Assembly: GCF_020103695.1 (NCBI RefSeq)
Contig: NZ_JAHXBF010000014.1
Coordinates: 236,297-300,296 of the forward strand
Origin: Hyalangium versicolor
GTDB lineage: Bacteria > Myxococcota > Myxococcia > Myxococcales > Myxococcaceae
Length of the DNA: 64,000 nucleotides
Direction: 5' to 3'
Shown: piece by piece, positions 2,856 to 16,981 of the stretch
Numbering within the stretch: position 1 is the first letter of the stretch
Layout: each line of letters begins with the position of its first letter
Program-made: the position numbers and the translations under genes
The notes under the pieces: model-generated
The model's database searches: none
What the model saw: only the letters and a program-made list of their open reading frames with translations
What the model was told of the DNA's origin: nothing

Positions 2856-3868
2856 CGGAGCCCGAGCAGGGAGCTCTCCCCTCCGCCGAGTGGATTCCCA
2901 TCCGGCTCTACTCGAAGGACTCCCGATTCTTCGTGGACTGGTGCCACCTGCGGGGGATGCGCCTCACCGAACCCTTCTACGATCAGAGCATCGAGCGCTG
3001 CCTGCGCCATCCGTTCTCCCTGCTGTTCCGCCCGCAGACTCCCGTCGAGAGGCTGGTCGAACCTCGGGCCCTGCAAGGCTCGCTGGCGCCTCGGGGGTTC
3101 ATCTTCCACCTGTCGCGCTGTGGCTCGACGCTGGTCTCGCAGATGCTGGCGGCGCTCCCGCGCAACGTGGTCCTGTCCGAAGCGGGCCCCATCGACTCGG
3201 TGCTCCGTGCGCACCTGCACGTGCCTGGCGTCACCGACTCACAGCGCATCGAGTGGCTGAGGGGCATGGTGGCGGCGCTCGGTCGCCAGCGCCACGCGGA
3301 GGAGCAGCACCTCTTCATCAAGTTCGACGCCTGGCACGTGCTGGAATTGCCGCTGCTCCAGCGAGCCTTTCCCGGTGTCCCGTGGATCTTCCTCTACCGG
3401 GATCCGGTGGAGATCATGGCCTCGCACCAGGGCCACAAGGGCGCTCACATGCTGCCCGGGGTGCTCGAACCATCGCTCCTGGGACTGGAGCCCGAGCAGG
3501 TGAAGGCGATGGCGCTGGAGGAGTACGGCGCGCGCGTCCTGGCCCACCTGTGTGAGACCGCCCTGAAGGCCTGGCGTGAGCGAGTCAGCCCCGCGCTCCT
3601 GGTGCACTACCAGCAGCTTCCGGAAATCGTCCTGGACACCCTGCCGACACACTGGGGAGTCGGCTTCACGGCGGAGGAACTCGATCTCATGCGCGAGGCT
3701 GCGCGGCTCGACGCGAAGAACCCTGTATTGCCCTTCGCGGACGACACGGCTGCCAAGCAACGGGCACTCAAGTCACCTGCCCGAGAGCAGGTGGAGCGAT
3801 GGGTGCGTCCTCTCTATGAGGCCCTCGAGGCCGTGAGGAATGAGGCGCTCGGGCCGGCCTCATCCTGA
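2852..3868 (+). CDS. sulfotransferase-family protein
   Basis: FIFHLSRCGSTLVSQML is a 5'-PSB-like P-loop, and an RDP motif lies downstream (IFLYRDPVEIMAS). The ATG at 2852 overlaps the hydroxylase stop (ATGA, translational coupling). The longer ORF from 2528 is an in-frame upstream extension through the hydroxylase gene. Confidence 0.75.
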   Translation: MTEPEQGALPSAEWIPIRLYSKDSRFFVDWCHLRGMRLTEPFYDQSIERCLRHPFSLLFRPQTPVERLVEPRALQGSLAPRGFIFHLSRCGSTLVSQMLAALPRNVVLSEAGPIDSVLRAHLHVPGVTDSQRIEWLRGMVAALGRQRHAEEQHLFIKFDAWHVLELPLLQRAFPGVPWIFLYRDPVEIMASHQGHKGAHMLPGVLEPSLLGLEPEQVKAMALEEYGARVLAHLCETALKAWRERVSPALLVHYQQLPEIVLDTLPTHWGVGFTAEELDLMREAARLDAKNPVLPFADDTAAKQRALKSPAREQVERWVRPLYEALEAVRNEALGPASS

Positions 3869-5236
3869 GCCCACAATCCGATTCTTCAACCGGTTGAGCA
3901 CCTGATCGTACAGCTGTCGACGCCGGGTGTCGGGCACGGCAACGAACTGATCCTTGAGCCTGCGCACCCATCCCACGGCCATCCAAGCCAGACTCCTCTG
4001 GATGGCTTCCAGTTCACGGTCCAGGTTGGAGCTGCGGGAGCGCTCGGCTTCGAGGGAGTCCCGAAGGCGCTTCAGCTCCGCGGCATTGGCCTCCACTTCC
4101 GCCGAACGCTCCTGAGCTTGTGTCCGGACCTCAGCCAGGAGCCTCTCGATTCTGGCCTGGCGGGACTGCGCCTCCCGCAACGCATGCTCCTGCTGCCGCA
4201 ACAGCGCCTGAGCCTGCAACCGCCCCGCCGTGGCCTCCGCATGGACCTGACCCTCTCGGCCATAAGCGCTTCGGGACTGCTCGCCGAGGGCCACTCCAGA
4301 CTGCCGTACTCTCGCGTAGAGCGCCGACAGCTCCTCCACCCTCCGGCTGAGGCTGTACTCGCGCCAGACCCGCTCGGCGAGCCGCGCGACATCCACCTGC
4401 CTCGCCTCCTCGAACAGCAGGTGCTCCAGTTCCTCCCGAGATGGGCGCGAGCGGGTGAACCGTCCGGAGAAATTCACGGAGGCCAGGCTCTCCAAACGCT
4501 CCGCCGTCAACAGCCCGTCACAGCCATGCACGTCGTACACCAGACAGGGACGCTGGAGCGCCGCCGCCAGCAACACGGTTCGGCCAATGGTGATGACACG
4601 ATCAAAGCCGCGCAGCAGTTCCGGGGTGATCTCCACGGAGTTCTCGGGCAACCCCAGATGCGTCCAGGTCATCTCCGGATGCGCGGTGCGAATGGTCTCG
4701 AGATCCCGAGCCAGCGTCTCATCCAGGTGATTGGTCACCACCGCGATGCGACGGGCCTCACCAGGCACTTCGGGTGAGAGGGGCTGCATTGCGGTGTCAT
4801 CGAACCAGTTCCGGAAGACGGAGAGCGGCGCCGCAGCCCCGAACCGAGAGCGCCGCAGCACGGCTTCCACCTCCTCCGAGACCGCCAACCCGTGGGCGAC
4901 GCCCTCCCAGCAAAGAGGCGCTGCCTCGAGAGGAGGCGTCACCCCGAGCGAGGAAAACACCCCGGTCCCTCGCACCTGGAGAGCCCCCAGGAAGTAGAGG
5001 CAAGGTGCGTGGTGGATGTGGAGAATCTCGGGATCGAACGCTTCGATCCGCGCGACATCTCCCGGCAGGAACACCGTCACCCCTCGCCGCGCCATCTCCT
5101 CGGAGACAAGCCCTGACTCAAAGGTGAAGACGGCGACCTGGTGACCCGCGCGTCGCAGGGCCGAAGCCAGTTCCAGGGAGTACAGCTCGGATCCTGCCCG
5201 GCTGTTCAGGTGGTGGTTGGCGAAAAGGATCCTCAT
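3860..5236 (-). CDS. GT-B fold glycosyltransferase (GT4-like N-terminus) with a ~150-aa C-terminal coiled-coil tail
   Basis: The N-terminus MRILFANHHLNSRAGSELYSLELASALRRAGHQVAVFT is a typical Glyco_trans_4 start. The C-terminal third is heptad-rich and charged (REAQSRQARIERLLAEVRTQAQERSAEVEANAAELKRLRDSLEAERSR). It converges on the sulfotransferase with a 9-nt overlap. Confidence 0.65.
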   Translation of the reverse strand: MRILFANHHLNSRAGSELYSLELASALRRAGHQVAVFTFESGLVSEEMARRGVTVFLPGDVARIEAFDPEILHIHHAPCLYFLGALQVRGTGVFSSLGVTPPLEAAPLCWEGVAHGLAVSEEVEAVLRRSRFGAAAPLSVFRNWFDDTAMQPLSPEVPGEARRIAVVTNHLDETLARDLETIRTAHPEMTWTHLGLPENSVEITPELLRGFDRVITIGRTVLLAAALQRPCLVYDVHGCDGLLTAERLESLASVNFSGRFTRSRPSREELEHLLFEEARQVDVARLAERVWREYSLSRRVEELSALYARVRQSGVALGEQSRSAYGREGQVHAEATAGRLQAQALLRQQEHALREAQSRQARIERLLAEVRTQAQERSAEVEANAAELKRLRDSLEAERSRSSNLDRELEAIQRSLAWMAVGWVRRLKDQFVAVPDTRRRQLYDQVLNRLKNRIVGSG

Positions 5237-5313
5237 GACTGTTGGACGTCATAACGTCCACTTGCAACTCAAACAATCCGGATTTTCCCCAAACCGAAGG
5301 TGACGCTGGGGGC

Positions 5314-6864
5314 TCAAGGAGAGCCAGCAAACGGCCAGAGGAACCCCGGTTGGCGGATGAGCGCTGGAGCCTTCCGGCCCTGCCAGCGGACGCCCTCTCC
5401 AGGCCGCAGCAGCAGTGCACGAGGGCCGCGCCTCCTCTGCCGGTGGATCTGCTCCAGCCGCTCCGGATACGGGTCCGCATCCGGATTCTCATCCAGGGTG
5501 CTGGCACCGCTCACGGGCTCACCGGGATAGCCCGGGTAGCGCGGGCCCATCCCTTCCCGCCAGTACCACGGCGCCCCTCCGTCCGCACACGGGACCACAT
5601 AGCGCGCACCGAGCAGCTCACCGAACTCCAGCGCTTCCTCGGGCCCCGCCATGAGCTGCTGCGGCCGGGTGAGCGCATTCCGAGGCACATCCACCAGGAA
5701 CGCATCCAGCGTGGTGAACCCGAAGAAGAGCGGCTTGAGCCGGAAGCCGCGCACGCCACAGAACAGCACGTCAACGGGCCCCTCTTCGCGAACACGGCGG
5801 CAGACGGTCCGCATGTTGCCCCGCACATCGTGCCCGGCATCCGCGAAGAAGGCCGCCGAGAAGCCCGGCGTGCGCACCAGCCACGTGTTCCCCTCGTTGA
5901 AGAGATCCGGGTAGAGGCCCTGCTCATCGGTCGGCTGCTCTCCATGGAACGGCAGGGCGCGCACTGTGAGATCCCCCACCTGACGCTCCTCACCCCAGCA
6001 CAGCGGCTCCACGCGCGTGAAGCCGAGCTGGCCCAGCCGCAGCGCACAATCCGTGGAGAAGAGACTCTCGCGCTCCACCGCGGGAACGAAGATCCGCGTA
6101 TCCCTCGGAAGCTGCAGCAGGGATCCCAGGTGGAAGTGATCCCCATGGGAGTGAGTGATGAGCACCGCGTCGATCTGGCCGAGATCTCTCGGGTGCACTG
6201 GCGGATAGCCTGGCAGATCAATCCCACTCATGGGCCGGAAGTACGGATCCACCAGGACCCGCGCCTCACGGCCGGCGACGAGCACCGTGTTGTGGCCAGC
6301 GAAGAGCGCCCCCGGGGAGGGAATCTCTAGGGCCCCCTCGTGGCGTACCAACCACCCTGCCCCCGCCATGTCGTTGATCAGCTCCGCCACGGCAGGAACC
6401 GCGGAGAGGGTCCTCAGCTCGGCACGGCTGGCCCCACGTGCGAGTGCGGCGAACAGATCCGAGATCGCCGGCCACTCACCCTTGCCGACGGGGACATCCA
6501 GCCCGAGCTGCTCCTGGCGCAGGTGCAGCACGCGAGGCTGGTGGCGCCTCGCATCGGGGAACAGCACCTCGCGCCGCAGCACCCGACGTCCGCCGCGCCG
6601 TTTCTTGCCCTCACAGAGCGCGGCGTAGCGAGGCGTCTCCTCCAGCCAGCGCACCAGCGAGCGCGCCTCACGAAGCGCCCGATCCGGCCCCAGTACGGCG
6701 AGCTGCCGCTTCAGCGCGACATGGGCCCGACGCACCGGCCGCGAGGCAGGCCCCTGGATGCTGCACCCCAGATCCTCATGGTGCTCCGCCTCGGTCCGAG
6801 CCGAGGCCAGGACCGCCAGACTGACGCCGCGATGGAGGGTGATCCGCATGGAGCCAGAGCCCAA
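5314..6864 (-). CDS. MBL-fold metallo-hydrolase with a ~180-aa N-terminal extension
   Basis: Carries the HSHGDH metallo-beta-lactamase motif (VLITHSHGDHFHLGSLL) and downstream His/Asp ligands. Lies 78 nt upstream of the glycosyltransferase on the same strand. The start could also be the ATG at 6849. Confidence 0.7.
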   Translation of the reverse strand: MGSGSMRITLHRGVSLAVLASARTEAEHHEDLGCSIQGPASRPVRRAHVALKRQLAVLGPDRALREARSLVRWLEETPRYAALCEGKKRRGGRRVLRREVLFPDARRHQPRVLHLRQEQLGLDVPVGKGEWPAISDLFAALARGASRAELRTLSAVPAVAELINDMAGAGWLVRHEGALEIPSPGALFAGHNTVLVAGREARVLVDPYFRPMSGIDLPGYPPVHPRDLGQIDAVLITHSHGDHFHLGSLLQLPRDTRIFVPAVERESLFSTDCALRLGQLGFTRVEPLCWGEERQVGDLTVRALPFHGEQPTDEQGLYPDLFNEGNTWLVRTPGFSAAFFADAGHDVRGNMRTVCRRVREEGPVDVLFCGVRGFRLKPLFFGFTTLDAFLVDVPRNALTRPQQLMAGPEEALEFGELLGARYVVPCADGGAPWYWREGMGPRYPGYPGEPVSGASTLDENPDADPYPERLEQIHRQRRRGPRALLLRPGEGVRWQGRKAPALIRQPGFLWPFAGSP

Positions 6865-6917: not shown

Positions 6918-8690
6918 TTACGGCACGCGCGTGATCCGGCCCGTCGTGGGCGGAGTCAGCGGGTTGTTGGTGCGCAGGTAGGCATCCACCGCGTCGAGAT
7001 CGATAGGGCCGGTGAGAACATCCGTGCCCTGGGTGAACGTCGCGTAGCCGTCTCCACCGGAGGCCATGAAGTTGTTCACCGTGACGCGGTAGGTCGCCAC
7101 CGGATCGATGACCACGCCGTTGAGCTTGATGGAAGCCGGGTCGATCTTGTCACCGGCCGGGCCCGACGCCTTCCAGGTGTAGGAGAAGCCCTGCGACGCC
7201 TGCATGATGAGCGGGAAGCCACTCGTCTGGTTCGGCGGGAACTGCTCCTCCAGCACCTTCTCGATCTGCGCGCCGGTGAGCGTGAGCGTCGTCAGGTTGT
7301 TGGCGAAGGGCTGCACGGCAAAAGCCTCGCCGTAGGAGATCTCCCCTTCGTTGATGTCCGCGCGCACGCCGCCCGCGTTCTGGAAGGCGATGACGGCCTT
7401 GCCTGTCTGATCGTTGCTCGTGGCCGCGAGCATCGCATCCGCGATGACGCTGCCCAGCGAGTACTCGCCCGACGCGCTCGCTGGGAGCGGACGCACCGGC
7501 GCCTTCAGCGCCACGGGGGTGTTGCCGATGACGCGGTTGGCCAGCGGCGCAGCCTTGGCGACGAAGTCCTTCACGACCGCATCTACGGGCATGTCCGCGT
7601 TGTCGCGGGTGACGACGATGTTGCGCGCGGTCACCTCGATCACGTCGTGCGAGACGGGGTCCAGCTTCAGGTCGATATCAGTGATGACACGGCCGAAGCT
7701 GGCGGCGCTCGTCACGCGCTTGTTGTTGATGACGCAGTTGTAGGCCGCGTGAGTGTGGCCGGAGACGACCACATCCACCGCAGGATCGAACCGGTTGACG
7801 ATGTCCAGGATGGCGCCCGAGACGCCATCGCAGTTGTCGGCGAGGCCCGGCGGGGCCAGCTGGGCGCCACCCTCGTGGATCAACACCACGATGGCCTCCA
7901 CACCCTGCTGCTTCAGCTCGGGAACGAGCGCGTTGACCGTGTCCGCCTCGTCCTGGAAGGTGAGGCCCACGATGCCAGCCGGGTTGACGATCTTCGACGT
8001 GCCCTCCAGCGTCATCCCCACGAAGCCCACCTTCACGCCGTCGAACTCGCGGATCGTGTAGGCCGGCAACAGCGTCTTCCGGGTGGCGACATCGGTGAAG
8101 ACGTTGGCCGAGAGGAACTTGAACTTCGCGCCGGTGAACGTGGTGCCGGCCTGACAGCCCTCCACGGGGTGGCAGCCGCCATTCTGCATGCGCAGCAGCT
8201 CTTCGCGGCCGTCATCGAACTCGTGGTTGCCCACCGTGTTGATGTCCAGCCCGATCATGTTCATCACGTCGATGGTGGGCTCGTCGTGGAAGATGCCCGA
8301 GATCAGGGGCGAGGCACCGATCAGATCTCCCGCCGACACGACCACCGTGTGCTCGGGGTCTTCCTGGCGCAGCTGGTTGATGTGGTACGCGAGGAAGGCC
8401 GCGCCGCCCGCATTCACCTCGGTGGTCGAAACGCCGCCATCCTCGAGGGTGGTCCCGCCATCCGCGAGGGGGGAGATCACCTTGACGCGCCCGTTGCTTC
8501 CCGAGGGAGGCTCCAGGTTGCCGTGGAAGTCGTTGAGGCCGATCAGCTGGACGTGGACCGGTGAAGCACTGGGAACCGGATCATCGTCCCCACAGCCGAT
8601 GTAGATGAGCAAAGAGCCTACAACGAGCGTCCCAAGGAGAAGGAGGGCACGATAGCGCCCCTGATCAGAGGGGGAATGGGAGTGGGTCAT
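6918..8690 (-). CDS. bifunctional metallophosphatase/5'-nucleotidase (UshA-like), lipoprotein
   Basis: Calcineurin-like motifs GLNDFHG, GNHEFD and GHTHA are followed by a 5'-nucleotidase C-terminal domain. The preferred start MTHSHSP...LLIYIGCGDD gives a lipoprotein signal with lipobox IGC. The ORF is open to 8819. Confidence 0.8.
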   Translation of the reverse strand: MTHSHSPSDQGRYRALLLLGTLVVGSLLIYIGCGDDDPVPSASPVHVQLIGLNDFHGNLEPPSGSNGRVKVISPLADGGTTLEDGGVSTTEVNAGGAAFLAYHINQLRQEDPEHTVVVSAGDLIGASPLISGIFHDEPTIDVMNMIGLDINTVGNHEFDDGREELLRMQNGGCHPVEGCQAGTTFTGAKFKFLSANVFTDVATRKTLLPAYTIREFDGVKVGFVGMTLEGTSKIVNPAGIVGLTFQDEADTVNALVPELKQQGVEAIVVLIHEGGAQLAPPGLADNCDGVSGAILDIVNRFDPAVDVVVSGHTHAAYNCVINNKRVTSAASFGRVITDIDLKLDPVSHDVIEVTARNIVVTRDNADMPVDAVVKDFVAKAAPLANRVIGNTPVALKAPVRPLPASASGEYSLGSVIADAMLAATSNDQTGKAVIAFQNAGGVRADINEGEISYGEAFAVQPFANNLTTLTLTGAQIEKVLEEQFPPNQTSGFPLIMQASQGFSYTWKASGPAGDKIDPASIKLNGVVIDPVATYRVTVNNFMASGGDGYATFTQGTDVLTGPIDLDAVDAYLRTNNPLTPPTTGRITRVP

Positions 8691-8754
8691 TCGCGCCAAG
8701 GGAAATACCTGAAAATGGATCCTTGCGGAACCAAGTAAGAGCGAAGGCCGAGGG

Positions 8755-10056
8755 CTATCGATCTCCCCAGGCCAACCCCATGCCCAGAGTGAAAGCGATC
8801 CCATGGGCCCACGCCGCATCAGGTGGCTTCAGGCCCTGGTAGCGCACCTCGGCGTTGAGGGAGAACGGGCTCGCCCAGGCCGCATGCACGCGCAATCCGA
8901 GCGGCACGCCCACTCGCCGTTGTCCCTCCCAGGGGAGCAGCCCGATCCCCGCTGAGGCCCGCAGATCGAGGCCCAGCGCATAGCCCGGCCGCGCAGTCCA
9001 CAGCGGAGGAGAGAGCACGACGAGGCTCCCGCCGGCTGGCCGAGCCAGACCGTGTCCGCCGCCTGCACTCCGAGTCCAATCAACTGACAGCCCGAATGAG
9101 CGCGGGAGCGGGAGCACCGCGCGCAGACCGACGATCGGGGTGGTCCCCCGCGAGTCCCGCGTGAGCCCACCCAGGAATTGAGCAGAGAGCTCGGGCGCGG
9201 GGTGGAAGCCTCGCAGCGCCACGGGGTTGTCGGAGGCCGCCGCCTCGAACTGCTCACTCGCCCATTCAAGGAAGGCCCGGGTATAGGCCACAGCGCTGGA
9301 GACCCGCGCGTCCACGAAGGCCGCATAGGTTGCGGGTTCGACCGAAAGCGCTTTCCCCTTCCAGTGCACGGTGCTCGCGCCGAAGGCATTGCCGACCTCG
9401 GCGCCGTAATGTCCGAAGGAGCCGGGGCCCCGGGTGGAGGGCTCGGTCCAGAAGGCGCTCCAGGGAATGGGACCCTGGGCGGTGGCCAGGGTTTCGTTCC
9501 TCACGGTGGCCAGGGTCTCTCGCGCGAGCTGCTGCTGCGCCTCGTCCCCCGGGAGCGGAGGCACTTCGCGGAGAGCGATCCGAGTCAGTGCCGCGTGGAT
9601 GCCGTACCGCTCGAAGCGATCAGTGAGGCCGTGGTTCACCGGCACCACGTGGGGCGGCGATGCCATGTCCTGGATGTGGTGGGCAAGGTGCCCGGCGCGA
9701 TCGAAGGCCCGATCCAGGTCCCCGTGGCGGGCAGCCTCCAGTGCCTCCTGCCAGAGCTCGCGGACCCTCGAATCCGAGGCCCGCCGGAGCGGCGTATCGA
9801 GCGAGCCCTCTGGAAAGTAGAAGTGGTGCCAGCCCGTCCACTTCACGTGGAGGTTGAGATCCTCGGCCGTGGCGCCGTGCATCACCTCGGCCCGGTGCGC
9901 CTCGAGCCATGGGCTCCCCTTCGATCCTCGGGCGGCGTCCAGTGCGGCCTCGGTGAGGGCCCGGTGGGACTCCACCGAGAACGCTGATGCCCTTGGCGAG
10001 ACGGCCAGGAGCAGGAGCAGCAAGGTGGCTGGGCAAGCGAGCTTCACGAGGCGCAT
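8755..10056 (-). CDS. secreted zinc-dependent phospholipase C / S1-P1 nuclease-like protein with a C-terminal Gly/Ala-rich beta-strand domain
   Basis: A signal peptide (LLLLLLAVSPRASA) is followed by His-rich helical motifs resembling the Zn-PLC/P1 nuclease fold (HRALTEAA, WLEAHRAEVMHGATAED, HHFYF, HHIQDMASPPH). The C-terminal ~130 aa form alternating hydrophobic beta-strand-like repeats. Confidence 0.55.
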   Translation of the reverse strand: MRLVKLACPATLLLLLLAVSPRASAFSVESHRALTEAALDAARGSKGSPWLEAHRAEVMHGATAEDLNLHVKWTGWHHFYFPEGSLDTPLRRASDSRVRELWQEALEAARHGDLDRAFDRAGHLAHHIQDMASPPHVVPVNHGLTDRFERYGIHAALTRIALREVPPLPGDEAQQQLARETLATVRNETLATAQGPIPWSAFWTEPSTRGPGSFGHYGAEVGNAFGASTVHWKGKALSVEPATYAAFVDARVSSAVAYTRAFLEWASEQFEAAASDNPVALRGFHPAPELSAQFLGGLTRDSRGTTPIVGLRAVLPLPRSFGLSVDWTRSAGGGHGLARPAGGSLVVLSPPLWTARPGYALGLDLRASAGIGLLPWEGQRRVGVPLGLRVHAAWASPFSLNAEVRYQGLKPPDAAWAHGIAFTLGMGLAWGDR

Positions 10057-10146
10057 TCTGGAACCAACGCCTCATGGGGTCACGAGCTCCCCTGCCCTAT
10101 CACCGCCTGGCCGCGGAGCAGCCGAGGCAGCTCCGAACGGTGGGAC

Positions 10147-10368
10147 TCAAGAGATGCGCCGGCGGGTGGGCGGCCAGTTTCGCCGGGAGATGACAGCCGA
10201 ACTCACGATGAAGGCCACCACCGCGACGGCAACAGCTACGAGCCAGTACCAGGTGAGTGGGCTCCTGGCGACGATATCGTTGTCGGTGGGTCCCAACCCG
10301 GGCTGGGCGAGCGCGAGCAGGGGCGTCAGAAGGCAGAGCACTGCGGCGGGAATCGGAAGCGTTCGCAT
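10147..10368 (-). CDS. small membrane/secreted protein (signal peptide, C-terminal TM helix and Arg-rich tail)
   Basis: MRTLPIPAAVLCLLTPLLALAQP is signal-like and WYWLVAVAVAVVAFIVSSAVISRRNWPPTRRRIS gives a TM helix plus basic tail. The ORF is open to 10458; the start is chosen at the internal Met. Low information. Confidence 0.35.
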   Translation of the reverse strand: MRTLPIPAAVLCLLTPLLALAQPGLGPTDNDIVARSPLTWYWLVAVAVAVVAFIVSSAVISRRNWPPTRRRIS

Positions 10369-10491
10369 GATCGTCCTCTCTGGGAGAACGTTGGCATCCC
10401 GGGTCCCGACCACAAGCCAACGAACGGAAGCTGGCCCGCTGCCCCCTCGGGGACTCATTCCGGTCCCATTCGAGCGCTCTAGCCGTTAGCC

Positions 10492-11355
10492 TTGCGGCGC
10501 ATGCTGACCGAAGTGCAGGCAGGGCCGTACACCGTCCGAGGGATCTCAGTGGCCGGGGTGTACACGTCGCTCCAGGTTCCGGAGTTGAGCGTGGTGCTGG
10601 ACGCGGGAGTCCCCCTGCGGAGCTTCGCGACGACGGACCACATCTTCCTGAGCCACGGGCACTCGGATCATTCCAGCTCTTTGGGCTCGCTGCTGGCGCT
10701 CCGGGGGCTGATGGGCAGGCATTCGCCCGCCCAGGTGTTCCTCCCGGCGGAGATCGAGTCCGCGGTCCAGGAGGCACTGGCGTCACTCAGCCGGCTGCAT
10801 CGTTCGGTCGTGACCTTCGAGACCATCCCGATGCGCCCAGGCGAGACGCGGAAGATGTACCGCGACATCTGGGTGCGGGCCTTTCGCACGCACCATGCGG
10901 GCCCGTCGCTGGGCTACCAGTTCTTCCGCCGCATCACGAAGCTGAAGCCCGAGCACCAGGGCCTTCCGGGAGAGGAGATCGCCCGCCTGCGTCGAGAGGG
11001 CGTGCCTGGAGTCTTCGAGGAGCAGGAGCGGCTGGAGCTGGCCTACGCCACGGATACGTTGTCGCGGGTGCTGGAGACAGCGCCGGAGATCCTGGAGAGC
11101 CGGGTGTTGATCCTCGAGTGCACGTACCTGGATGACAAATGGACGGTGGAGGAGACGCAGGAGCGCCTGCACACGCACCTGGACGAGATCATCGCTCGGG
11201 CGGACCTGTTCCAGAACGAGGCGCTGGTACTGATGCACTTCAGCCAGGCCTACGGGCCGGAGCGCGTGCACGACATCATCCGTGAGCGAGTGCCTCCGGC
11301 CCTGCTGGAGCGGATCCGGGTTTTCGCGCCGAGTTCCAGCCAGTGGTTCGGGTAG
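10492..11355 (+). CDS. MBL-fold metallo-hydrolase (RNase Z/ElaC-like)
   Basis: The HGHSDH motif (IFLSHGHSDHSSSL) and C-terminal His/Asp ligands (RTHHAG, LMHFS) match a short tRNase Z-like architecture. Confidence 0.7.
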   Translation: MRRMLTEVQAGPYTVRGISVAGVYTSLQVPELSVVLDAGVPLRSFATTDHIFLSHGHSDHSSSLGSLLALRGLMGRHSPAQVFLPAEIESAVQEALASLSRLHRSVVTFETIPMRPGETRKMYRDIWVRAFRTHHAGPSLGYQFFRRITKLKPEHQGLPGEEIARLRREGVPGVFEEQERLELAYATDTLSRVLETAPEILESRVLILECTYLDDKWTVEETQERLHTHLDEIIARADLFQNEALVLMHFSQAYGPERVHDIIRERVPPALLERIRVFAPSSSQWFG

Positions 11356-11370
11356 AGCCCGCCTGCGTTC

Positions 11371-11979
11371 TCATGAGCCCGAGGTTCGCGGAGGCCGCAG
11401 GGCCTGGAGTTCCGTGAGCACGGACTGGAGCTGGGGCGTCTCCATGACCTTCTGCGCCGAGGCGAAGAACTGGGAGAGGTCGCCCATGCCCTGGTACTCG
11501 TAGACGCAGGCCTGGAGCGACATCTCCAACCGGTCCACCTGTCGTACCAGTCGAGCCTCGAAGGAGGCGCCGCGCTCGTACTCTTCCCAGAGCGCGAGGT
11601 ACTCGGAGCCGCGCGGCAGCCGTCCGAGGATCTGCTCCACGGCCTGACGTTCCAGCGCGTGCTTCTGGGTGGGGTTCACGCCATCGTGGGGAGTGATGTC
11701 ACCGACACGGGCCTCGCCGAGATCATGCAGGAGCGCGATGCGGACGAGCTTGGAGGCATCTGCCTCGGGGAACCAGCTATCGGCGATGAAGAGGCACAAC
11801 AGGGCCACGCCCAGGGAATGCTCCGCGACGCTCTCGCAGCGCTCCGGAGGAACGCCCACGCGCAGCCAGCCCTGGCGGTAGAGCTGCTTGAGGTGGTTGA
11901 ACTCGAAATAGGCCTCGATGAGAGGCAGCGTCGCCTTTCCGCTCAGGTGGGCAACGGGGGGCGTGGCCTTGGTCCGCAT
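11371..11979 (-). CDS. HD-domain phosphohydrolase, YfbR-like 5'-deoxynucleotidase family
   Basis: An H..HD...E arrangement (ESVAEHSLGVALL...LLHDLGEARVGDITP...D) is typical of YfbR/HD_3 nucleotidases. The start lies 9 nt after the stop of the upstream TPR gene, so it is the last gene of a three-gene operon. Confidence 0.75.
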   Translation of the reverse strand: MRTKATPPVAHLSGKATLPLIEAYFEFNHLKQLYRQGWLRVGVPPERCESVAEHSLGVALLCLFIADSWFPEADASKLVRIALLHDLGEARVGDITPHDGVNPTQKHALERQAVEQILGRLPRGSEYLALWEEYERGASFEARLVRQVDRLEMSLQACVYEYQGMGDLSQFFASAQKVMETPQLQSVLTELQALRPPRTSGS

Positions 11980-11988
11980 GGGGAAAGA

Positions 11989-14601
11989 CTATGACGATTG
12001 ATTCCCCGAGCTCTCTTCCAGAATGCGGTTCAACTCAGGGAGTGCCTGCCGGGTGATGGGGTGATCTGGGCCCACAGAGTGGAGCAGTGCCTCCACTGCC
12101 TGCCGAGCCGTCGTGACAGCCTCCTTCTCTTTCAAGGCAGCCTGAACCTGCGCCAAGCGATGAAGCGCCTGAGCCGTCTCAGCGTGGTGCGTTCCCCAGC
12201 TTGCAGCAGCAATCTCGACGGCCCGACGTAGGAACGGCTCCGCTTCCTTGGGGCGATCTTGTCTGGCCAGGGTAAATCCCAGCAACGTGAGTGTGGCGCA
12301 AAGATCAGGATGTGTTGCGCCAAGCGCGTTCTCCTCAAGAGAAAGCACCTGATGCAGTAAAACTTCTGCTTCTGGGTACCGCCCCTGTCGCTCTAGCACT
12401 CGTGCCAGTTCGCGCAGCGAAACGGCGTAGCTAGGGTGAGCAGTCCCGAGCGCCGTCCTATCGGTGGCAAGCACTTGGCGCAGCAATACCTCCGCCTCCA
12501 CGTACCTTCCCTGGCGTCCTAGCACTACAGCCAAGGCGTGCAGCGAAGCGGCGTAGCCAGGGTGTGCAGTGCCCAGCGCCCTCTCTTCAATTTCTAGAAC
12601 CTGCCGCAGCAATACCTCCGCCTCTGTGTACAGTCCCCGCCTGTCCAGCACTCCAGCGAGTTCGTGCAGCGAAGCAGTGTAGCTAGGGTGTACCGTGCCG
12701 AGTGTCTTCTCCTTACTGGCGAGTACTTGCCGCAGCAATACCTCCGCCTCCATGTATCTCCCCTGCCGCTCCAACACTCCGGCGAGTTCGTGCAGCGAAG
12801 CGGCATAGCTAGGGTGTGCAATGCCCAGTGCATTTTCCTTGCTGGCAAGTGCTTGCCTCAGCAACACCTCCGCCTCCATGTATCTCCCCTGCCGCTCCAA
12901 CACTCCGGCGAGTTCGTGCAGCGAAGCGGCATAGCTAGGGTGTACGGTGCCCAGTGCATTTTCTTTGTTGGTAAGTGCTTGTCTCAGCAATACCTCCGCC
13001 TCCATGTATCCCCCCTGCCGCTCCAACACGGTAGCGAGTTCGTGCAGCGAAGCGGCATAGCTAGGGTGTGCAGTGCCCAGTGCATTTTCTTTGCTGGCAA
13101 GTGCTTGCCTCAGCAACACCTCCGCCTCCATGTATCTCCCCTGCCGCTCCAACACTCCGGCGAGTTCGTGAAGAACCCTTCCGTGCTCTTCGCCGGATGC
13201 AGAGGCAAGCAACCTTCGGAAGATCGACTCAGCCTCTCCCCACCGTCCCTCTTCAAGAAGTACGCGAGCGAGGATCCCTAACCAGCGCGGAGCCAGTTCA
13301 GCCGCACGCCGAGCCCACAACTCGGCTACTGCCAAGTCCCCTATGTCCAGTGCCTGGGATGAACTCTGCCCCCACATCTCATCATTGACAGGTTCGTGTC
13401 TGAGCCAGACTTCAACCACATCGGCGCGCCGCCCCAACCCTTCAGGGCTGGCCGAGAATGGGAGGGTCTTCGTTGTCGAGGCCGCCCACCAGGATGCCTC
13501 TTCCGGGTCCAGTGATTCTCCACGCATCACCTTCTGGGTCACAGCTTCCACTTCCAGAGCCCGAAGGCGGCGGGCCTGCTTGCCATCCTCGCTGAACGCG
13601 CGCATCGCAGGAGCAAGTGCCTGCCCGCGCACCAGTTCCTTCTCCGGGATCAACTGACGCGCCACAGCCAGCCGTCCTACCGCCGCTCCACCATCCGTCC
13701 CCCGTGCCATTTCCTTCTCTACTGTCCGCTCGGGTGTCCCCTGCTCGAGCAACGTGCTGAGAAGATCGATGGCTTCCGGCTCAAGGTCCACCAATGCCGC
13801 CAATCGCCCAGGACGGCGCGCCCCCGCCCGCTCCAACCGTTCCCGCGCCGTTTGAAAGTCAGCCACCTGCCCATGAACCGCCCACCATCCCGGAGAGGGC
13901 ACGGCAGGCTCCACGAGAATGCTCCTCCCCCTGCGCCGGGCCTCAGCCAGGGCCCAACGCACCCGCCGCAACCGGAAGTCCCCATCCACGTCCGTCCAGG
14001 CCAACCAGTCTCCACGGGCCGCACGAACCTCCGAGACCATCTCTTCGTACGGCCGTGCAGCGCTCACCCTCCGCAGTTTCCGGCGCGGACGCGCCACACG
14101 AAAGGCCGCCTCCAGATCTCCTCCCTTCCACACCACGCCCGGCGCTCGCACAGCCAGTGCCCGCCGAAGCCCCGTCACCGCGAAGGGCGCAGGTCCAGGG
14201 CGACACTCCAGCCTGTGGGAGATCCAATCGAAGAAATCCACGGACCGCTGGGCCAGGACCACCGACGTCTCTCGCGAGGAGAACAACACGACCCGCAGCG
14301 CACGCGCGGCGAAGAGGGGACGGTTGATGTTCAGCCAATCCGCATCCTCAGCGCGGGGTATCAGGACGAGGGTCGATCCCGGTTCCGCCTCCATCAGCCG
14401 ACGTGCATCGCTGTGGACCTCCAACTCTGGATAATCGGGCAACAACACACGCACCAGTTCCCCCAACCGCTCGGGGCAGGCGTGGTCGACCCAGACCAGC
14501 ACCCCCATCCGAGACAGCCCCAGAAGGACGCTCAGGCGCCGGAGCCAGACGGGGATGTCCGGACCAGGTGCATCGTCAGCAACGGATGGGGGTAGTACCA
14601 T
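11989..14601 (-). CDS. large TPR-repeat protein: ~450-aa N-terminal domain of unknown function plus about 8 tandem 42-aa TPR_10/12-type repeats
   Basis: The C-terminal half is near-identical repeats of LHELAGVLERQGRYMEAEVLLRQALASKENALGTAHPSYAAS, kinesin-light-chain-type TPR. The start is either ATG 14601, overlapping the upstream NTPase stop by 70 nt, or the internal ATG at 14508. Confidence 0.8.
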   Translation of the reverse strand: MVLPPSVADDAPGPDIPVWLRRLSVLLGLSRMGVLVWVDHACPERLGELVRVLLPDYPELEVHSDARRLMEAEPGSTLVLIPRAEDADWLNINRPLFAARALRVVLFSSRETSVVLAQRSVDFFDWISHRLECRPGPAPFAVTGLRRALAVRAPGVVWKGGDLEAAFRVARPRRKLRRVSAARPYEEMVSEVRAARGDWLAWTDVDGDFRLRRVRWALAEARRRGRSILVEPAVPSPGWWAVHGQVADFQTARERLERAGARRPGRLAALVDLEPEAIDLLSTLLEQGTPERTVEKEMARGTDGGAAVGRLAVARQLIPEKELVRGQALAPAMRAFSEDGKQARRLRALEVEAVTQKVMRGESLDPEEASWWAASTTKTLPFSASPEGLGRRADVVEVWLRHEPVNDEMWGQSSSQALDIGDLAVAELWARRAAELAPRWLGILARVLLEEGRWGEAESIFRRLLASASGEEHGRVLHELAGVLERQGRYMEAEVLLRQALASKENALGTAHPSYAASLHELATVLERQGGYMEAEVLLRQALTNKENALGTVHPSYAASLHELAGVLERQGRYMEAEVLLRQALASKENALGIAHPSYAASLHELAGVLERQGRYMEAEVLLRQVLASKEKTLGTVHPSYTASLHELAGVLDRRGLYTEAEVLLRQVLEIEERALGTAHPGYAASLHALAVVLGRQGRYVEAEVLLRQVLATDRTALGTAHPSYAVSLRELARVLERQGRYPEAEVLLHQVLSLEENALGATHPDLCATLTLLGFTLARQDRPKEAEPFLRRAVEIAAASWGTHHAETAQALHRLAQVQAALKEKEAVTTARQAVEALLHSVGPDHPITRQALPELNRILEESSGNQSS
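12170..13240 (-). repeat. tandem array of ~126-bp near-identical direct repeats (~8 units) encoding 42-aa TPR units inside the 870-aa TPR gene
   Basis: The unit ...gcagcaacacctccgcctccatgtatctcccctgccgctccaacactccggcgagttcgtgcagcgaagcggcatagctagggtgt... recurs with only a few substitutions per unit. GC is locally lower than the flanks (about 55-58%). It produces the artefactual repetitive plus-strand ORF 12664-13281. Confidence 0.9.
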
Positions 14602-15887
14602 TCCGAATCGTTGGGATAGGGCAACAGGTGTTGGTAGTTGAGCAGCTCATGCGCCAGCGCGTTGGCTGGCAGGCGATGCATCGGATCCTTCGCGACTTCC
14701 TCCAGCAGTTGGATGTGGCCCGTGTTCAGTCCAGTCTCCTGCCGCAGGCGCCACTCATCCAGCACCTGCTTCACGGCCTCGAGCGTCGCGGCCGGAGCAT
14801 CCCGGTCCCACCCCACCTCCGCCAGGGAGCGGATGAAACGCACGAAGTCTCGCGCACGCCCACCGGAGCGATAGGCCAGCTCCACCAGGAGCTCCCGGCT
14901 GACGAGCCCCTGAACCTGAGCTCCGAGATCCTTCACCCGCTGCGCATACATCTCGCAGAAGAACTCGACCCCCTTGCCTGGCCTCTCAGGATGATCGTGG
15001 TCGAGGACGGGCTCGTTCACCAGTGCCATGGGTTTGAAGCCACGTACTCCCGCCGTAGCCAGGTGGTGCCGGAGCGCGAATGGGCCACACACCACCACGG
15101 GACAGTCGAGCTGTGAGAGCAACTGGGACTCGACGAAGAGGGCCTTGGCTCGCTCCACATCCCGGATTCGATCCAGCCCATCGATGACGAAGACCACCTT
15201 CCTGTGCTTCGACTGAACCTCGCCGACCAACAGGTTGACGGCCCCCAGCAGATCCTGCACGCGGCGGTCCTGATCCGGCAGAGGCTTCTCGCTCCTCCCC
15301 AGGGGCAGGTTCCAGGCCTTCACGGCGCCAACCACCGATTTGACGGCCTTGAGCCCCAAGCCCAGCCCCACGACTTCCGGACTGGCCGCAGCCAGGGTGG
15401 CGCCCAGGTCCAGCGCGTCCTTGGCGAAAGAGCCCAGATCCAACTGGGGCTCCGGAGCCCCCGTGGCCACAGCCAGGCCCTGCCAGGCCCTGCCCAGTTG
15501 CTTCACCATCTCCGGGTCCAGCTCGAACTGGAGCCGCTGCTTGAAGCGCGAAACCAGCCCCAGCCCGGCCAGGAAGCACACCTCCCACGAGTGGATCCGA
15601 TCCAACGCGTGGGGATCCTTGACGACCTCGGCGAAGTGCCGAGCCAGATCCAGGAAGACAACGAGCTCCCGCTCCTCCCGCTCCTCCGCGATGTGAAGCA
15701 ACTCGGTCGTCTTGCCCGTGCCCACCGTCCCCGCCAGAAGGATGCGAGGCGTACCGAAGGGCCGGTCCAACGTATCCAGGATCTTCTGAGCCGGACTGTG
15801 CGGCCGAGGCGCACGCCAGGGCAGCGGCGCAGGCAATTCGGGATCGAAACGCTCATAGAGCGTCCGCCACAGGTCACGGCTCGACAT
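14532..15887 (-). CDS. P-loop NTPase, KAP/STAND-like (Walker A GTVGTGKTT; Walker B VVFVIDGLDR)
   Basis: Walker A is ILLAGTVGTGKTTELL. Walker B, about 190 aa later, is KVVFVIDGLDRIRD (hhhhDGLDR, KAP/NACHT-like), followed by a helical C-terminal domain. The start is chosen at MSSRDLW (ATG 15885-15887); the ORF is open to 15929. Confidence 0.7.
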   Translation of the reverse strand: MSSRDLWRTLYERFDPELPAPLPWRAPRPHSPAQKILDTLDRPFGTPRILLAGTVGTGKTTELLHIAEEREERELVVFLDLARHFAEVVKDPHALDRIHSWEVCFLAGLGLVSRFKQRLQFELDPEMVKQLGRAWQGLAVATGAPEPQLDLGSFAKDALDLGATLAAASPEVVGLGLGLKAVKSVVGAVKAWNLPLGRSEKPLPDQDRRVQDLLGAVNLLVGEVQSKHRKVVFVIDGLDRIRDVERAKALFVESQLLSQLDCPVVVCGPFALRHHLATAGVRGFKPMALVNEPVLDHDHPERPGKGVEFFCEMYAQRVKDLGAQVQGLVSRELLVELAYRSGGRARDFVRFIRSLAEVGWDRDAPAATLEAVKQVLDEWRLRQETGLNTGHIQLLEEVAKDPMHRLPANALAHELLNYQHLLPYPNDSEWYYPHPLLTMHLVRTSPSGSGA

Positions 15888-15983
15888 ATCCCTCAACCTA
15901 CCACCCGCCTCCCACCCTCGCGAACACATGCCGCAGGTCTTTCACTGCCAGCGCCCCGCTTGCACCCGAATATCCGCAGAAGC

Positions 15984-16499
15984 TCAAGGCTTCGCGGCGG
16001 GAGGGGACTTCGCGCCGCCTCCCCCCGGGTTCACACCGGCGGGAGTGAATTCCCCATTGGGATCGGCAGCCCACAGCGAGTAGCGGCGCGTGGACATGTC
16101 GTGGAGCACGCCGTTCGTGTAGCAGAGCAGGTAGACGGTGGTCTGCGGCTCGGTCATCGAGAACATCCCGTGCAGGAAGCACTCGGCGCCGTCCGCCGCC
16201 CGCATCTCCTTGCCGATGGGCCGCCCGATCAAACCGATGACGTCCTGCTGCGCCATGCCCGGATTGACCACCTTGATGCCATGGGCGGTGATGATGCGCA
16301 TCGCATCCTCCTGCCCCAGCATGGACACCCAAGCCGCCACCACGGCGATCAGCGGGATGAGGGGCACCATGGCGATGTACACCCAGCGCCGATAGTTGAT
16401 GCGCTCCTCCTTGCGGAAGGCGGTGAAGAGGCCCTCCGCGTCGGAGTTCGTCTGCTCGGCCACCATGGAAGGATTCATGCCCGTCTCTGGCGTAGTCAC
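15984..16499 (-). CDS. hypothetical membrane protein (single TM, C-terminal Gly/Pro-rich tail)
   Basis: A TM segment (WVYIAMVPLIPLIAVVAAWVSML) precedes a soluble domain. I recognise no motif. It lies 54 nt upstream of the NTPase gene on the same strand. Confidence 0.45.
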   Translation of the reverse strand: MTTPETGMNPSMVAEQTNSDAEGLFTAFRKEERINYRRWVYIAMVPLIPLIAVVAAWVSMLGQEDAMRIITAHGIKVVNPGMAQQDVIGLIGRPIGKEMRAADGAECFLHGMFSMTEPQTTVYLLCYTNGVLHDMSTRRYSLWAADPNGEFTPAGVNPGGGGAKSPPAAKP

Positions 16500-16558
16500 G
16501 CCGCCTCACATGCCGTTGTAGACCCCAGGAATGCAAGGAAACCCGCATCCCGGAAAGC

Positions 16559-16981
16559 TCATTCCACGACGCTCCGCCGAGCAAGCAGTCCATCCACCCC
16601 CGCGGCCAGGAGCACTCCCACGGTGTAGCAGACCAGGTCCGAGGCGAGGAACCCCCGCCCCAGCACCAGCGCTCCCAGCCAGTGCGCACGCACCGAGTCA
16701 AGCCACGGCACGTGGTACAGCTGGCTGAACTCCACGAGGAACGAGATCCCCCACGCCAGCCCCGCCACCCGGGCAATCGGCATGCGCGGCCACAGGAAGA
16801 GCAGCCCCACGTACATCATCATCGTCCACAGCGTGTCCCCCGCATAGGCCGCGAGGAAGGCCGGCACCGGGACCGCCCTGGAGCGAGACCCCAGGCCCAG
16901 CACCGGGAGCACGAGCAACAACAACGCAAGCCCCCAACGCGGGCGTGCAGGCACCACGGGAGCAAAGAGATCCACCCTCAC
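16559..16981 (-). CDS. DUF2809-family small membrane protein
   Basis: A 140-aa protein with 4 predicted TM helices (LALLLLVLPVLGL, LWTMMMYVGLLFLW, LAWGISFLVEF, VGVLLAAGV), typical of this family. Abuts the AlaX-like gene, 1 nt apart. Confidence 0.55.
   Translation of the reverse strand: MRVDLFAPVVPARPRWGLALLLLVLPVLGLGSRSRAVPVPAFLAAYAGDTLWTMMMYVGLLFLWPRMPIARVAGLAWGISFLVEFSQLYHVPWLDSVRAHWLGALVLGRGFLASDLVCYTVGVLLAAGVDGLLARRSVVE

Follow-up and report, generated by a model that had tools for sequence, protein, structure and literature searches.

Two separate things probably lie side by side in the region of the Hyalangium versicolor genome studied here: a two-gene accessory cassette specific to Myxococcota and an ancestral housekeeping gene of the HD_3 family. 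The cassette encodes an AAA+ NTPase and a TPR protein (referred to as the partner), which are supported as a functionally linked, previously undescribed STAND-like pair by their co-conservation across the phylum, their overlapping genes and one fusion protein. This link was already part of the original prediction, made on the 64,000-nucleotide stretch of DNA analysed as a whole (the window), which had counted the HD gene as third member of a conflict- or defence-type operon. The candidate system now comprises two genes only, and the HD gene drops out. Both the NTPase and the N-terminal module of the partner represent protein domains outside any Pfam family, and literature searches retrieved neither a description of the pair nor a paper naming the family. 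A defence role of the cassette is a candidate reading that is unsupported, the immediate neighbours at 46 loci being miscellaneous housekeeping genes.

Gene organization

All three predicted ORFs were found on the minus strand, in the following arrangement:

15888..15983, minus strand: spacer of 96 nt separating the NTPase start from the stop codon of the 160-aa gene upstream (sequence read)
14532..15887, minus strand: gene 1, 451-aa AAA+ NTPase of the ORC/Cdc6–STAND branch (WP_224366620.1)
14532..14601, minus strand: out-of-frame (-1) overlap of 70 nt, holding the partner start codon
11989..14601, minus strand: gene 2, 870-aa partner (TPR protein)
11371..11979, minus strand: HD_3/YfbR-like HD phosphohydrolase (WP_224366618.1; Pfam HD_3), not part of the cassette, 9 nt downstream of the partner stop

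The gap of 9 nt between the TPR and HD genes was correctly predicted; the first junction, left as either a 0-70 nt overlap or a 24-nt gap, is a true overlap of 70 nt. The NTPase starts at 15887 (MSSRDLW) and not at 15929, as indicated by the family alignment and RefSeq (WP_224366620.1). No sigma-70 promoter consensus was detected in the scan, and the cassette's own putative promoter is presumed to lie within the 96-nt spacer. Terminator-like matches occurred only antisense, inside the repeats of gene 2, and none before the HD gene. An Rfam scan of the whole window revealed no RNA families.

The NTPase

Four conserved motifs were identified, with invariance scored in 20 diverse homologs:

15705..15731, minus strand: Walker A GTVGTGKTT (G53-T61), with G53, T54, G56, G58, K59 and T61 invariant
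15168..15197, minus strand: Walker B strand and NACHT-like acidic pair VVFVIDGLDR (V231-R240), with D236, G237, D239 and R240 invariant
14850..14867, minus strand: SGGRAR motif (S341-R346) of the lid helix, with S341, G342, G343, R344 and R346 invariant
14577..14624, minus strand: C-terminal Pro/aromatic motif LPYPNDSEWYYPHPLL, with L422, P423, Y424, P425, S428, E429, W430, P433, H434, P435, L436 and L437 invariant

The Walker A and the distant Walker B had both been recognized beforehand and are separated by ~175 residues. They carry the signature of STAND NTPases (a Walker B of hhhhD[GD]xD[ED] type that includes a second acidic residue), G53, K59, D236 and D239 being invariant, and the gene 1 product is, by these motifs, apparently an active AAA+ ATPase. 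The proposed STAND/NACHT-likeness is borne out by the motifs, but not by the curated STAND-clade models, all of which scored below their cut-offs (AAA_16, 25.9 vs 32.6 bits; NACHT, 17 vs 26.7; nSTAND5, 16 vs 34; likewise the Pfam model NB-ARC). The faint NACHT match covers residues 234-261, and precomputed AAA_16 or NACHT matches exist for some homologs. No curated Pfam or NCBIfam family claims either cassette protein, and PADLOC-DB 2.0 returned only noise (E ~0.05) for the NTPase. Membership in the KAP group, also proposed, was rejected: no KAP_NTPase match was among the Pfam matches at E≤0.1, and the Gly/Ala-rich insert contains Lys and Glu residues and no transmembrane helix (highest Kyte-Doolittle mean over 19 residues, 1.39).

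The predicted structure displays an AAA+ core with lid and putative sensor-2 arginine. Its nearest structural class is that of the ORC/Cdc6-type initiators; the best neighbours are Cdc6/ORC, TnsC and MuB, and the fold appears closer to ORC/Cdc6 and TnsC than to NLRs. For this reason, a DNA-associated role of the NTPase is possible. The model contains a large helical insert (~150 aa) between β2 and the Walker B strand, which would occupy the position of the initiator-specific motif. The SGGRAR motif, located within helix 345-361, may be sensor-2-like by analogy to the GDAR motif of ORC/Cdc6. At the sequence level, the family profile retrieved only noise from PDB sequences (E>0.05; best E 0.059, HflX), and Pfam detected no Cdc6 or ORC match and no recognizable DNA-binding or winged-helix domain in the NTPase; the helices at 369-417 are a possible winged helix at most.

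The NTPase is conserved across orders with 50-87% identity. Its C-terminal motif LPYPNDSEWYYPHPLL is not predicted as folded (pLDDT <50 at 421-431); since wobble positions vary, selection on it acts at the protein level. It is proposed to represent a putative docking peptide for the partner.

The partner protein

Three features were assigned within gene 2:

13282..14601, minus strand: conserved N-terminal module (aa 1-440), consisting of a pair of α/β domains with five strands each, neither bearing a P-loop, and a helical domain
12022..13281, minus strand: array of TPR_10/TPR_12 type (aa 441-860) with ten in-register units of 42 aa, of which the nine at aa 483-860 are recognizable repeats
12382..13170, no strand assigned: tandem DNA repeat of 126 bp underlying the near-identical TPR units (TRF: 6.3 copies, 83% matches)

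The N-terminal 440 aa, corresponding to the ~450-aa domain described as unknown in the original prediction, matched no Pfam family at E≤0.1, and a Foldseek comparison of the module with PDB yielded nothing significant. Its origin as a decayed paralog of the NTPase was considered and discarded, profile–profile comparison of the two showing no relationship. The array is readily recognized by Pfam (TPR_10, 2e-63; TPR_12, 4e-62). About eight near-identical units had been counted; nine 42-aa units are present, seven of them near-identical. The lowered GC content over the repeats proved to be real (0.59-0.61), with a GC3 of 0.63-0.66 vs 0.85-0.89 in the flanking genes.

Among 60 homologs, the C-terminus of the partner is variable, with TPR in 45 and Pkinase plus FGE-sulfatase, NACHT, or NACHT plus Metallophos modules as other forms. 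An enzymatic effector is absent from the present copy of the cassette. PADLOC returned no matches for the partner, and scans of all three proteins with PADLOC, Pfam and NCBIfam revealed no named defence system, in agreement with the original statement on the operon. In one case (P0267), the first α/β domain of the partner is joined to the NTPase in a fusion protein.

Overlap and start of gene 2

The ATG of the partner (14601-14599) is formed by the codons GAA|TGG of NTPase Glu429-Trp430, belonging to the invariant Ser-Glu-Trp codons within LPYPNDSEWYYPHPLL. In about 65 of 72 loci the two genes overlap by 49-100 nt, always 1 mod 3 (-1 frame). The Glu429 codon is GAA in 55 and GAG in 9 cases, vs 98 GAA and 307 GAG at other Glu columns (Fisher p=1.7e-21), and W19 of the partner, encoded within the overlap, is at least 90% conserved. 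RefSeq annotates a partner of 839 aa starting from 14508 (M32; annotated form P0472). The codon bias supports initiation at ATG 14601 instead, as far as can be judged from sequence. On this evidence, the start annotated for the TPR gene in RefSeq, as in many other records, needs correction to the conserved internal codon, and the overlap represents a clean example of a long overlap maintained by selection.

Distribution, neighbourhood and insertion site

Among 82 Myxococcota loci, the NTPase is present in 78 and the partner in about 70, an N-domain homolog being encoded directly downstream of the NTPase gene in about 70 of the 82; no other neighbour is conserved. When all flank ORFs from 81 loci were clustered against one another, no third conserved gene emerged, the extra clusters consisting only of antisense shadow ORFs of NTPase or partner. 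At 50% identity, the NTPase family (E<1e-30) falls into ~240 clusters, which all appear to come from Myxococcota. At least 13 genomes possess two or more copies of the cassette, and the flanks vary from locus to locus with unrelated neighbourhoods. At a few loci the NTPase occurs solo or fused to an AAA_21 ATPase; the TPR partner is hence not obligatory for the family.

At 46 loci, the genes next to the cassette include none from mobile elements or phages, and transposases are missing from the neighbour families listed. Defence-island context was likewise negative: of 87 immediate neighbours analysed with PADLOC and Pfam at these 46 loci, only three, all generic Ser/Thr kinases, matched PADLOC models, and the remainder are housekeeping or miscellaneous genes.

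The insertion site was encountered in three states. The cassette is absent, leaving the 160-aa gene next to the HD gene, in L085, L090 and L091; it lies between the two in the window and in L088, a close metagenomic relative; and it follows the 160-aa gene with HD absent in L083 and L084. In the empty site L090 only 4 nt separate the 163-aa gene from HD; the 96-nt spacer is part of the inserted segment. When this empty site was compared with the occupied one, neither target-site duplications nor att-like repeats were seen at the boundaries of the insertion.

The adjacent HD gene

The HD protein (~200 aa, single domain) matches Pfam HD_3 with E=1e-37 (130 bits vs a cut-off of 22.5) and the YfbR-like family with 7e-9, and possesses the metal ligands H…HD…D (H54, H85-D86, D148). 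The predicted YfbR-like HD domain was thereby confirmed, but not identity with YfbR: against NCBIfam PRK03826, the E. coli YfbR equivalog, the protein reached 22 bits vs a cut-off of 122, for which reason it is placed as an HD_3 family member and not as a YfbR equivalog.

No HD homolog was found within 8 kb of the cassette at 84 other loci; two of these belong to relatives whose NTPases are 82-85% identical. Orthologs of 70-90% identity exist in genera whose examined HD loci have no cassette, among them cassette-free loci of Stigmatella, Pyxidicoccus and Archangium (72-84% identical), and the protein is ~60% identical in cyanobacteria. The 90% cluster of the window's HD protein also holds those of L090 and L091. 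The synteny 160-aa gene–HD–MBL-fold hydrolase is ancestral and kept with or without the cassette, and by gene order the adjacency of HD and MBL-fold hydrolase appears older than the insertion. On these sequence comparisons, the HD gene is an ancestral neighbour, of housekeeping 5'-deoxynucleotidase type by family, and not a component of the cassette. Co-expression in H. versicolor is possible owing to the 9-nt gap devoid of a terminator, and HD is probably co-transcribed with the cassette by read-through.

Function of the cassette

The following scenario is proposed. The cassette probably inserted just upstream of the ancestral HD gene. The gene overlap may couple translation of NTPase and partner such that both proteins are made together, and these would assemble into a hetero-complex, i.e., a split STAND/NLR-like nucleotide switch. 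Within it, the ATPase would provide nucleotide binding and hydrolysis, and the partner the scaffold and the ligand-binding repeats, with the C-terminal peptide of the NTPase probably docking on the conserved N-module. Complex formation, peptide docking, the switch or sensor role and translational coupling are all inferred. Weighing against the scenario are the absence of a profile-level relationship between N-module and NTPase, the ORC/Cdc6- and TnsC-like fold of the NTPase, the loci with a solo or AAA_21-fused NTPase, and the negative results for effector, PADLOC models and defence-island context. If the split STAND-like switch applies, NLR-type receptors could consist of two subunits, an active ATPase and, separate from it, a dead-ATPase sensor. 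To our knowledge, such an architecture has precedents in ORC and clamp loaders and none among bacterial NLR-like proteins. Carried further, the cassettes might be undescribed, phylum-wide split NLR-like receptors of Myxococcota, in which overlapping genes supply an ORC/Cdc6-like ATPase and, in fixed ratio to it, a TPR sensor based on a dead ATPase. Such receptors would function in immunity or in self/non-self conflict, with no enzymatic effector linked to them, and the ATPase could alternatively be wired to an ABC-type (AAA_21) ATPase. This wider picture is speculative and regarded as unlikely in its entirety.

An anti-phage or conflict function, with the hypervariable TPR array of an NLR-like sensor recognizing an invader protein and an ATPase-driven oligomer killing or arresting the cell alone or via effectors elsewhere, is possible if somewhat doubtful. 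It is consistent with the accessory, multi-copy and presence/absence-polymorphic distribution, the recent homogenization of the TPR repeats, a cassette GC3 below that of the flanks and the confinement to a multicellular phylum, as in the systems of Kaur et al. 2020 (PMC7159879). Furthermore, the C-terminal modules of the partners are of conflict-system type (TPR, NACHT, kinase, FGE-sulfatase, calcineurin-like phosphoesterase), and fusions join relatives of the NTPase to ATPases of the AAA_21/AAA_15 type, which is frequently met in defence systems. Against this stand the lack of an effector domain in most copies, the PADLOC results for both cassette proteins, and the neighbourhood with its three generic kinases and no mobile-element or phage flanks.

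Considerably less probable is a cellular role as an AAA+ machine that uses the TPR protein as adaptor, acting as DNA loader or remodeller (ORC/Cdc6-, TnsC- or MuB-like) or as assembly chaperone with TPR selecting the clients. Here, the best structural neighbours are DNA-binding initiator-clade AAA+ proteins, the helical insert sits where the initiator-specific motif does (an inferred positional equivalence), NTPase conservation is high and the neighbours are mostly housekeeping genes. Core machines, however, seldom show so patchy, multi-copy and polymorphic a distribution; no conserved client or gene of DNA metabolism accompanies the cassette, no transposase occurs among the neighbour families, and Pfam recognizes no DNA-binding domain.

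The three-gene defence operon, in which NTPase and TPR sensor would activate HD as a nucleotide-depleting or nucleic-acid-targeting effector, is highly improbable. HD-family enzymes are effectors in some known systems, the three genes share one strand with the short terminator-free gap before HD, and the same order recurs in L088. Absence of the trio as a conserved unit had been named beforehand as evidence against it, and this is what was observed: NTPase and TPR protein are co-conserved across Myxococcota, whereas HD is not conserved with them, being missing at all 84 other cassette loci and retained with its own synteny at cassette-free ones. Its adjacency to the MBL-fold hydrolase predates the insertion in this comparison, and its only PADLOC match is at noise level (Cas3 HD, E=0.008). 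Hardly credible, finally, is programmed ribosomal frameshifting at the conserved -1 overlap to yield a single NTPase–scaffold–TPR polypeptide in the manner of a canonical one-chain STAND protein: the constant frame and overlap length would suit it, yet no canonical X XXY YYZ slippery heptamer was seen in the window's overlap, the selection for GAA, by which the ATG arises within the Ser-Glu-Trp codons, argues for separate initiation, and none of the best 150 family representatives is an in-frame NTPase→partner fusion, the long ones being AAA_21 fusions or of reversed order.

Comparison with known systems

No PADLOC-DB 2.0 model of the named systems Avs, bNACHT, Septu, Gabija, Lamassu or PARIS matched the cassette. 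Compared to KAP P-loop NTPases (e.g., RdrA of RADAR), the fold match of the NTPase is weaker than to ORC/Cdc6 and the insert contains no transmembrane helices. The neighbouring HD protein shares the HD_3 domain, metal ligands and size of ~200 aa with YfbR/HD_3 (HDDC2-type) 5'-deoxynucleotidases, but remains below the E. coli YfbR equivalog cut-off.

ORC/Cdc6, TnsC/MuB and archaeal ATPase_2 (PF01637) proteins are among the closest known systems, without a sequence-level relationship; the NTPase differs from them by its ~150-aa insert and by a TPR partner in place of replication or transposition genes. The same holds for STAND/NLR-like NTPases that carry TPR sensors (Avs, bNACHT, bacterial NB-ARC–TPR proteins) as regards closeness, but here ATPase and repeats reside on two polypeptides from overlapping genes, an N-terminal effector is lacking and PADLOC yielded no Avs or NLR matches. 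The cassette likewise departs from the one-polypeptide NTPase–arm–repeats layout of STAND proteins (Leipe et al. 2004), the repeats being on the product of the next gene.

The iSTAND ternary conflict systems consist of MoxR, vWA and an inactive STAND protein (Kaur, Burroughs, Iyer & Aravind 2020, PMC7159879). Differences to these are that neither a MoxR nor a vWA gene is linked to the cassette (flank ORFs, 81 loci), that the active ATPase is ORC/Cdc6–STAND-like and not MoxR-like, and that the N-module of the partner matches no Pfam model at E≤0.1, any Pfam iSTAND model included. Shared with them (PMC7159879) are the pairing of an active AAA+ ATPase and a protein in which variable modules are attached to a catalytically dead NTPase-like core, a similar module repertoire (FGE-sulfatase, kinase, calcineurin-like phosphoesterase, TPR) and the concentration in multicellular prokaryotes.

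Gene content of the region

Three minus-strand ORFs were identified in the window, as located by the original prediction of a candidate defence-type operon, the upper coordinate of which was corrected by 42 nt:

14532-15887 (-), NTPase
11989-14601 (-), partner protein with TPR units
11371-11979 (-), HD_3/YfbR-like (HD) protein, 9 nt downstream of the partner stop

The NTPase is 100 % identical to WP_224366620.1 of Hyalangium versicolor and carries the predicted Walker A (GTVGTGKTT) and Walker B (VFVIDGLDR) motifs. Translation starts at the ATG at 15887 (MSSRDLW…), not at the ATG at 15929; all homologs have the matching N-terminus, and RefSeq annotates the same start. For the TPR protein, the N-terminal 440 residues (predicted as a ~450-aa unknown domain) gave no Pfam match, and the count of about eight near-identical repeats was revised to nine TPR_10/12 units of 42 residues, seven of them nearly identical. 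In the underlying DNA, a 126-bp unit is repeated 6.3 times in tandem (12382-13170), and the lower GC content of the repeats was confirmed (0.59–0.61). The third protein possesses a clear HD_3 domain (E=1e-37) with H…HD…D ligands. None of the three proteins was assigned to a named defence system by PADLOC, Pfam or NCBIfam.

Conservation of the NTPase-partner pair

A first homolog search yielded 463 NTPase relatives (~450 aa, 50–87 % identical) from Archangium, Stigmatella, Cystobacter, Sorangium and Polyangium, and an exhaustive profile search (E<1e-30) resolved the family into 240 clusters at 50 % identity. From species-representative genomes, 80 loci were retrieved; wherever the taxonomic label is informative, they belong to Myxococcota (Nannocystineae, Polyangia and Bradymonadia among them), and a few come from MAGs with no label beyond "Proteobacteria" or "bacterium". 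In about 70 out of 82 loci, the NTPase gene is directly followed, in the same orientation, by a homolog of the partner N-terminus (300–440 residues). All-against-all clustering of every flank ORF retrieved only NTPase and partner, plus antisense shadow ORFs, as common to the loci; the best cluster outside the pair occurred in just 7 loci at scattered positions. The conserved unit is therefore two genes, NTPase and partner, which are tightly co-inherited and form a real cassette, undescribed so far as the searched libraries and literature show. At least 13 genomes harbour two or more cassette copies, and the flanks vary from locus to locus.

Long antisense ORFs overlie the cassette (window 15204-16628, 13852-14595 and 12664-13281, all +); they do not count as evidence of genes, their cross-loci "conservation" mirroring the sense genes as high-GC shadow ORFs. 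Truncated partner ORFs of 270–368 aa suggest decay of individual paralogs:

4124-4984 of locus L015
9188-10000 of locus L043
9320-10426 of locus L041

Insertion site next to the HD gene

In none of the 84 other loci did tblastn (E<1e-3) detect an HD homolog at 8 kb or less from the cassette; these loci include two close relatives with NTPases 82–85 % identical. HD orthologs (70–90 % identical) are present in Stigmatella, Pyxidicoccus, Myxococcus, Archangium, Melittangium and Vitiosangium, with relatives of ~60 % identity in cyanobacteria. In Stigmatella erecta, HD is flanked by the same genes as in the window (GltB, AlaX-like, 159-aa gene, HD, MBL-fold hydrolase on the opposite strand, 5'-nucleotidase), the cassette being absent. 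Two metagenomic contigs likewise display a 163-aa gene 4 nt ahead of HD (belonging to the window's 90 % cluster) without the cassette, contig L088 is arranged as the window, and L083 and L084 contain the cassette without HD. These three states at one site show the insertion of a ~4.0 kb segment (11980-15983) between the 160-aa gene and HD; no target-site duplication was found at the junctions. Hence the proposed trio is not conserved as a unit, an outcome which the original prediction itself had named as refuting: NTPase, TPR protein and HD protein are not a system, and the HD protein belongs to the HD_3 family as an ordinary member.

The conserved ~160-aa protein (window 15984-16499, -) lacks a Pfam family and has homologs in L083, L085, L088 and L090. 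Its gene always has the AlaX-like gene on one side and either HD or the cassette on the other; at sites lacking the cassette, 4 nt separate its end from HD. This gene is probably the true operon partner of HD. The ancestral neighbourhood comprises three nucleotide- or phosphoester-related hydrolases (HD_3, MBL-fold Lactamase_B_2, Metallophos/5'-nucleotidase), and a faint Pfam match to Anti-Pycsar Apyc1 was obtained for the MBL ortholog of Pyxidicoccus. The hydrolase group occupies:

6918-8819 (-)
10492-11355 (+)
11371-11979 (-)

Gene overlap and partner start

The partner ORF begins 49–100 nt (most commonly 70 nt) ahead of the NTPase stop in about 65 out of 72 loci, without exception in the -1 frame relative to the NTPase. 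In the window, the partner ATG at 14601 straddles the GAA|TGG codons of the invariant Ser-Glu-Trp in the NTPase. The Glu codon at this position is GAA 55 : GAG 9, versus GAA 98 : GAG 307 at other conserved Glu columns of the same sequences, used as internal control (Fisher p=1.7e-21, only indicative since the sequences are related). This bias, the conservation (>=90 %) of partner W19, which is encoded within the overlap and starts a confidently modelled helix, and the lack of any other in-frame start in the stretch from codon 1 to codon 18 support the ATG at 14601 as a selected start codon. The RefSeq/PGAP call of 839 aa from M32 (14508) is therefore probably 31 codons short, the true start lying inside the NTPase ORF. 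Many public gene calls of homologs likewise begin past the NTPase stop.

Wobble positions across the NTPase motif LPYPNxSEWYYPHPLL still vary, so that its invariance reflects selection on the NTPase protein. Translational coupling is favoured over frameshifting, since no slippery heptamer was seen in the overlap and no in-frame NTPase-partner fusion among the best 150 family representatives.

Protein features

The NTPase model (pLDDT 78, pTM 0.80) comprises an AAA+ core and lid, with no sequence-level relative in the PDB. A largely helical, partly low-confidence insert of ~150 residues between β2 and the Walker B strand is devoid of transmembrane character, and the suggested KAP-like affiliation was therefore abandoned. 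K59, D236, D239 and R273 are among the invariant residues, as is the lid motif S341-G-G-R-A-R346, a putative counterpart of the Cdc6/ORC GDAR sensor 2; the protein is an active-looking ATPase. Its C-terminal Pro/aromatic peptide is conserved and unstructured (pLDDT below 50). In a family branch without TPR partner (L009, P0121, P0127, P0244, P0246), the NTPase is C-terminally fused to an AAA_21/AAA_15 (ABC/SMC-type) ATPase, followed in L009 by an overlapping 268-aa ORF without Pfam match:

7932-10628 of locus L009, NTPase–AAA_21/AAA_15 fusion

The very confident model of the partner N-module (pLDDT 91, pTM 0.88) displays two five-stranded α/β domains (~30–135, 150–245) and a helical domain (249–440), with N91, R94 and D122 invariant. 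Foldseek returned no significant structural relatives, hhalign no relation to the NTPase, and a GxxxxGK[ST] motif is absent. With moderate confidence, the module is regarded as a P-loop-less, AAA+-like scaffold. A Rosetta-stone link to the NTPase is given by a single sequence, metagenomic P0267 (700 aa), a fusion in reversed order: the first α/β domain of the partner, with 37 % identity (E=2e-15), lies at the N-terminus of a degenerate NTPase. The replaced Walker A lysine (GSGTST) and a DGLN Walker B suggest a fully inactive derivative.

Partner C-termini differ among homologs, with TPR in 45 out of 60 and some short or domain-less forms. NACHT- and kinase-type copies originate from some Polyangia and unclassified MAGs; the window's copy of the cassette has no effector domain. 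Non-standard C-termini are:

9244-14991 of locus L045, NACHT and calcineurin-like phosphoesterase after the N-module
3092-5851 of locus L042, NACHT after the N-module
9299-13324 of locus L048, TPR, Ser/Thr kinase and FGE-sulfatase (L054 similar in length)

Within 11989-15887, GC3 declines from NTPase (0.82) via partner N-module (0.72) to the TPR part (0.63), as it does in cassette copies of Archangium, Sorangium and Hyalangium sp.; HD, 160-aa and AlaX-like genes have 0.86, 0.89 and 0.85, respectively.

Possible function and relation to known systems

NTPase and partner would be co-produced and assemble into a complex, the Pro/aromatic peptide probably docking on the partner N-module. This complex could operate as a STAND/NLR-like nucleotide switch split over two proteins, in which the TPR array would bind the ligand. 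A role in conflict or immunity would agree with the accessory, multi-copy and polymorphic distribution, the variable C-terminal modules, the recently homogenised repeats, the GC3 of 0.63–0.82 against 0.85–0.89 in the flanks, and the limitation to a multicellular phylum, in which the cassette resembles the systems described by Kaur et al. 2020 (PMC7159879). It lacks contextual support, however: PADLOC matched nothing in the cassette and, of the 87 genes directly adjoining it at 46 loci, just three generic kinases, the remainder being DNA polymerase, PEPCK, Sua5, TonB receptors, esterases and the like. A cellular role, DNA-associated or chaperone-like, is possible, given the predicted ORC/TnsC-like fold of the NTPase.

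Among known systems, Avs and bNACHT models do not match the cassette, and its NTPase is no member of the KAP group. The combination of active AAA+ and dead NTPase-like scaffold recalls the ternary iSTAND systems, but the cassette is without their MoxR or vWA genes. The closest working analogue is a STAND/NLR receptor with TPR sensor, yet several membership tests failed: the cassette reaches the threshold of no curated STAND model and does not have the single-chain architecture. With its unusual architecture and conserved overlap, the cassette is best filed with the STAND/AAA+-plus-repeat-sensor kind.
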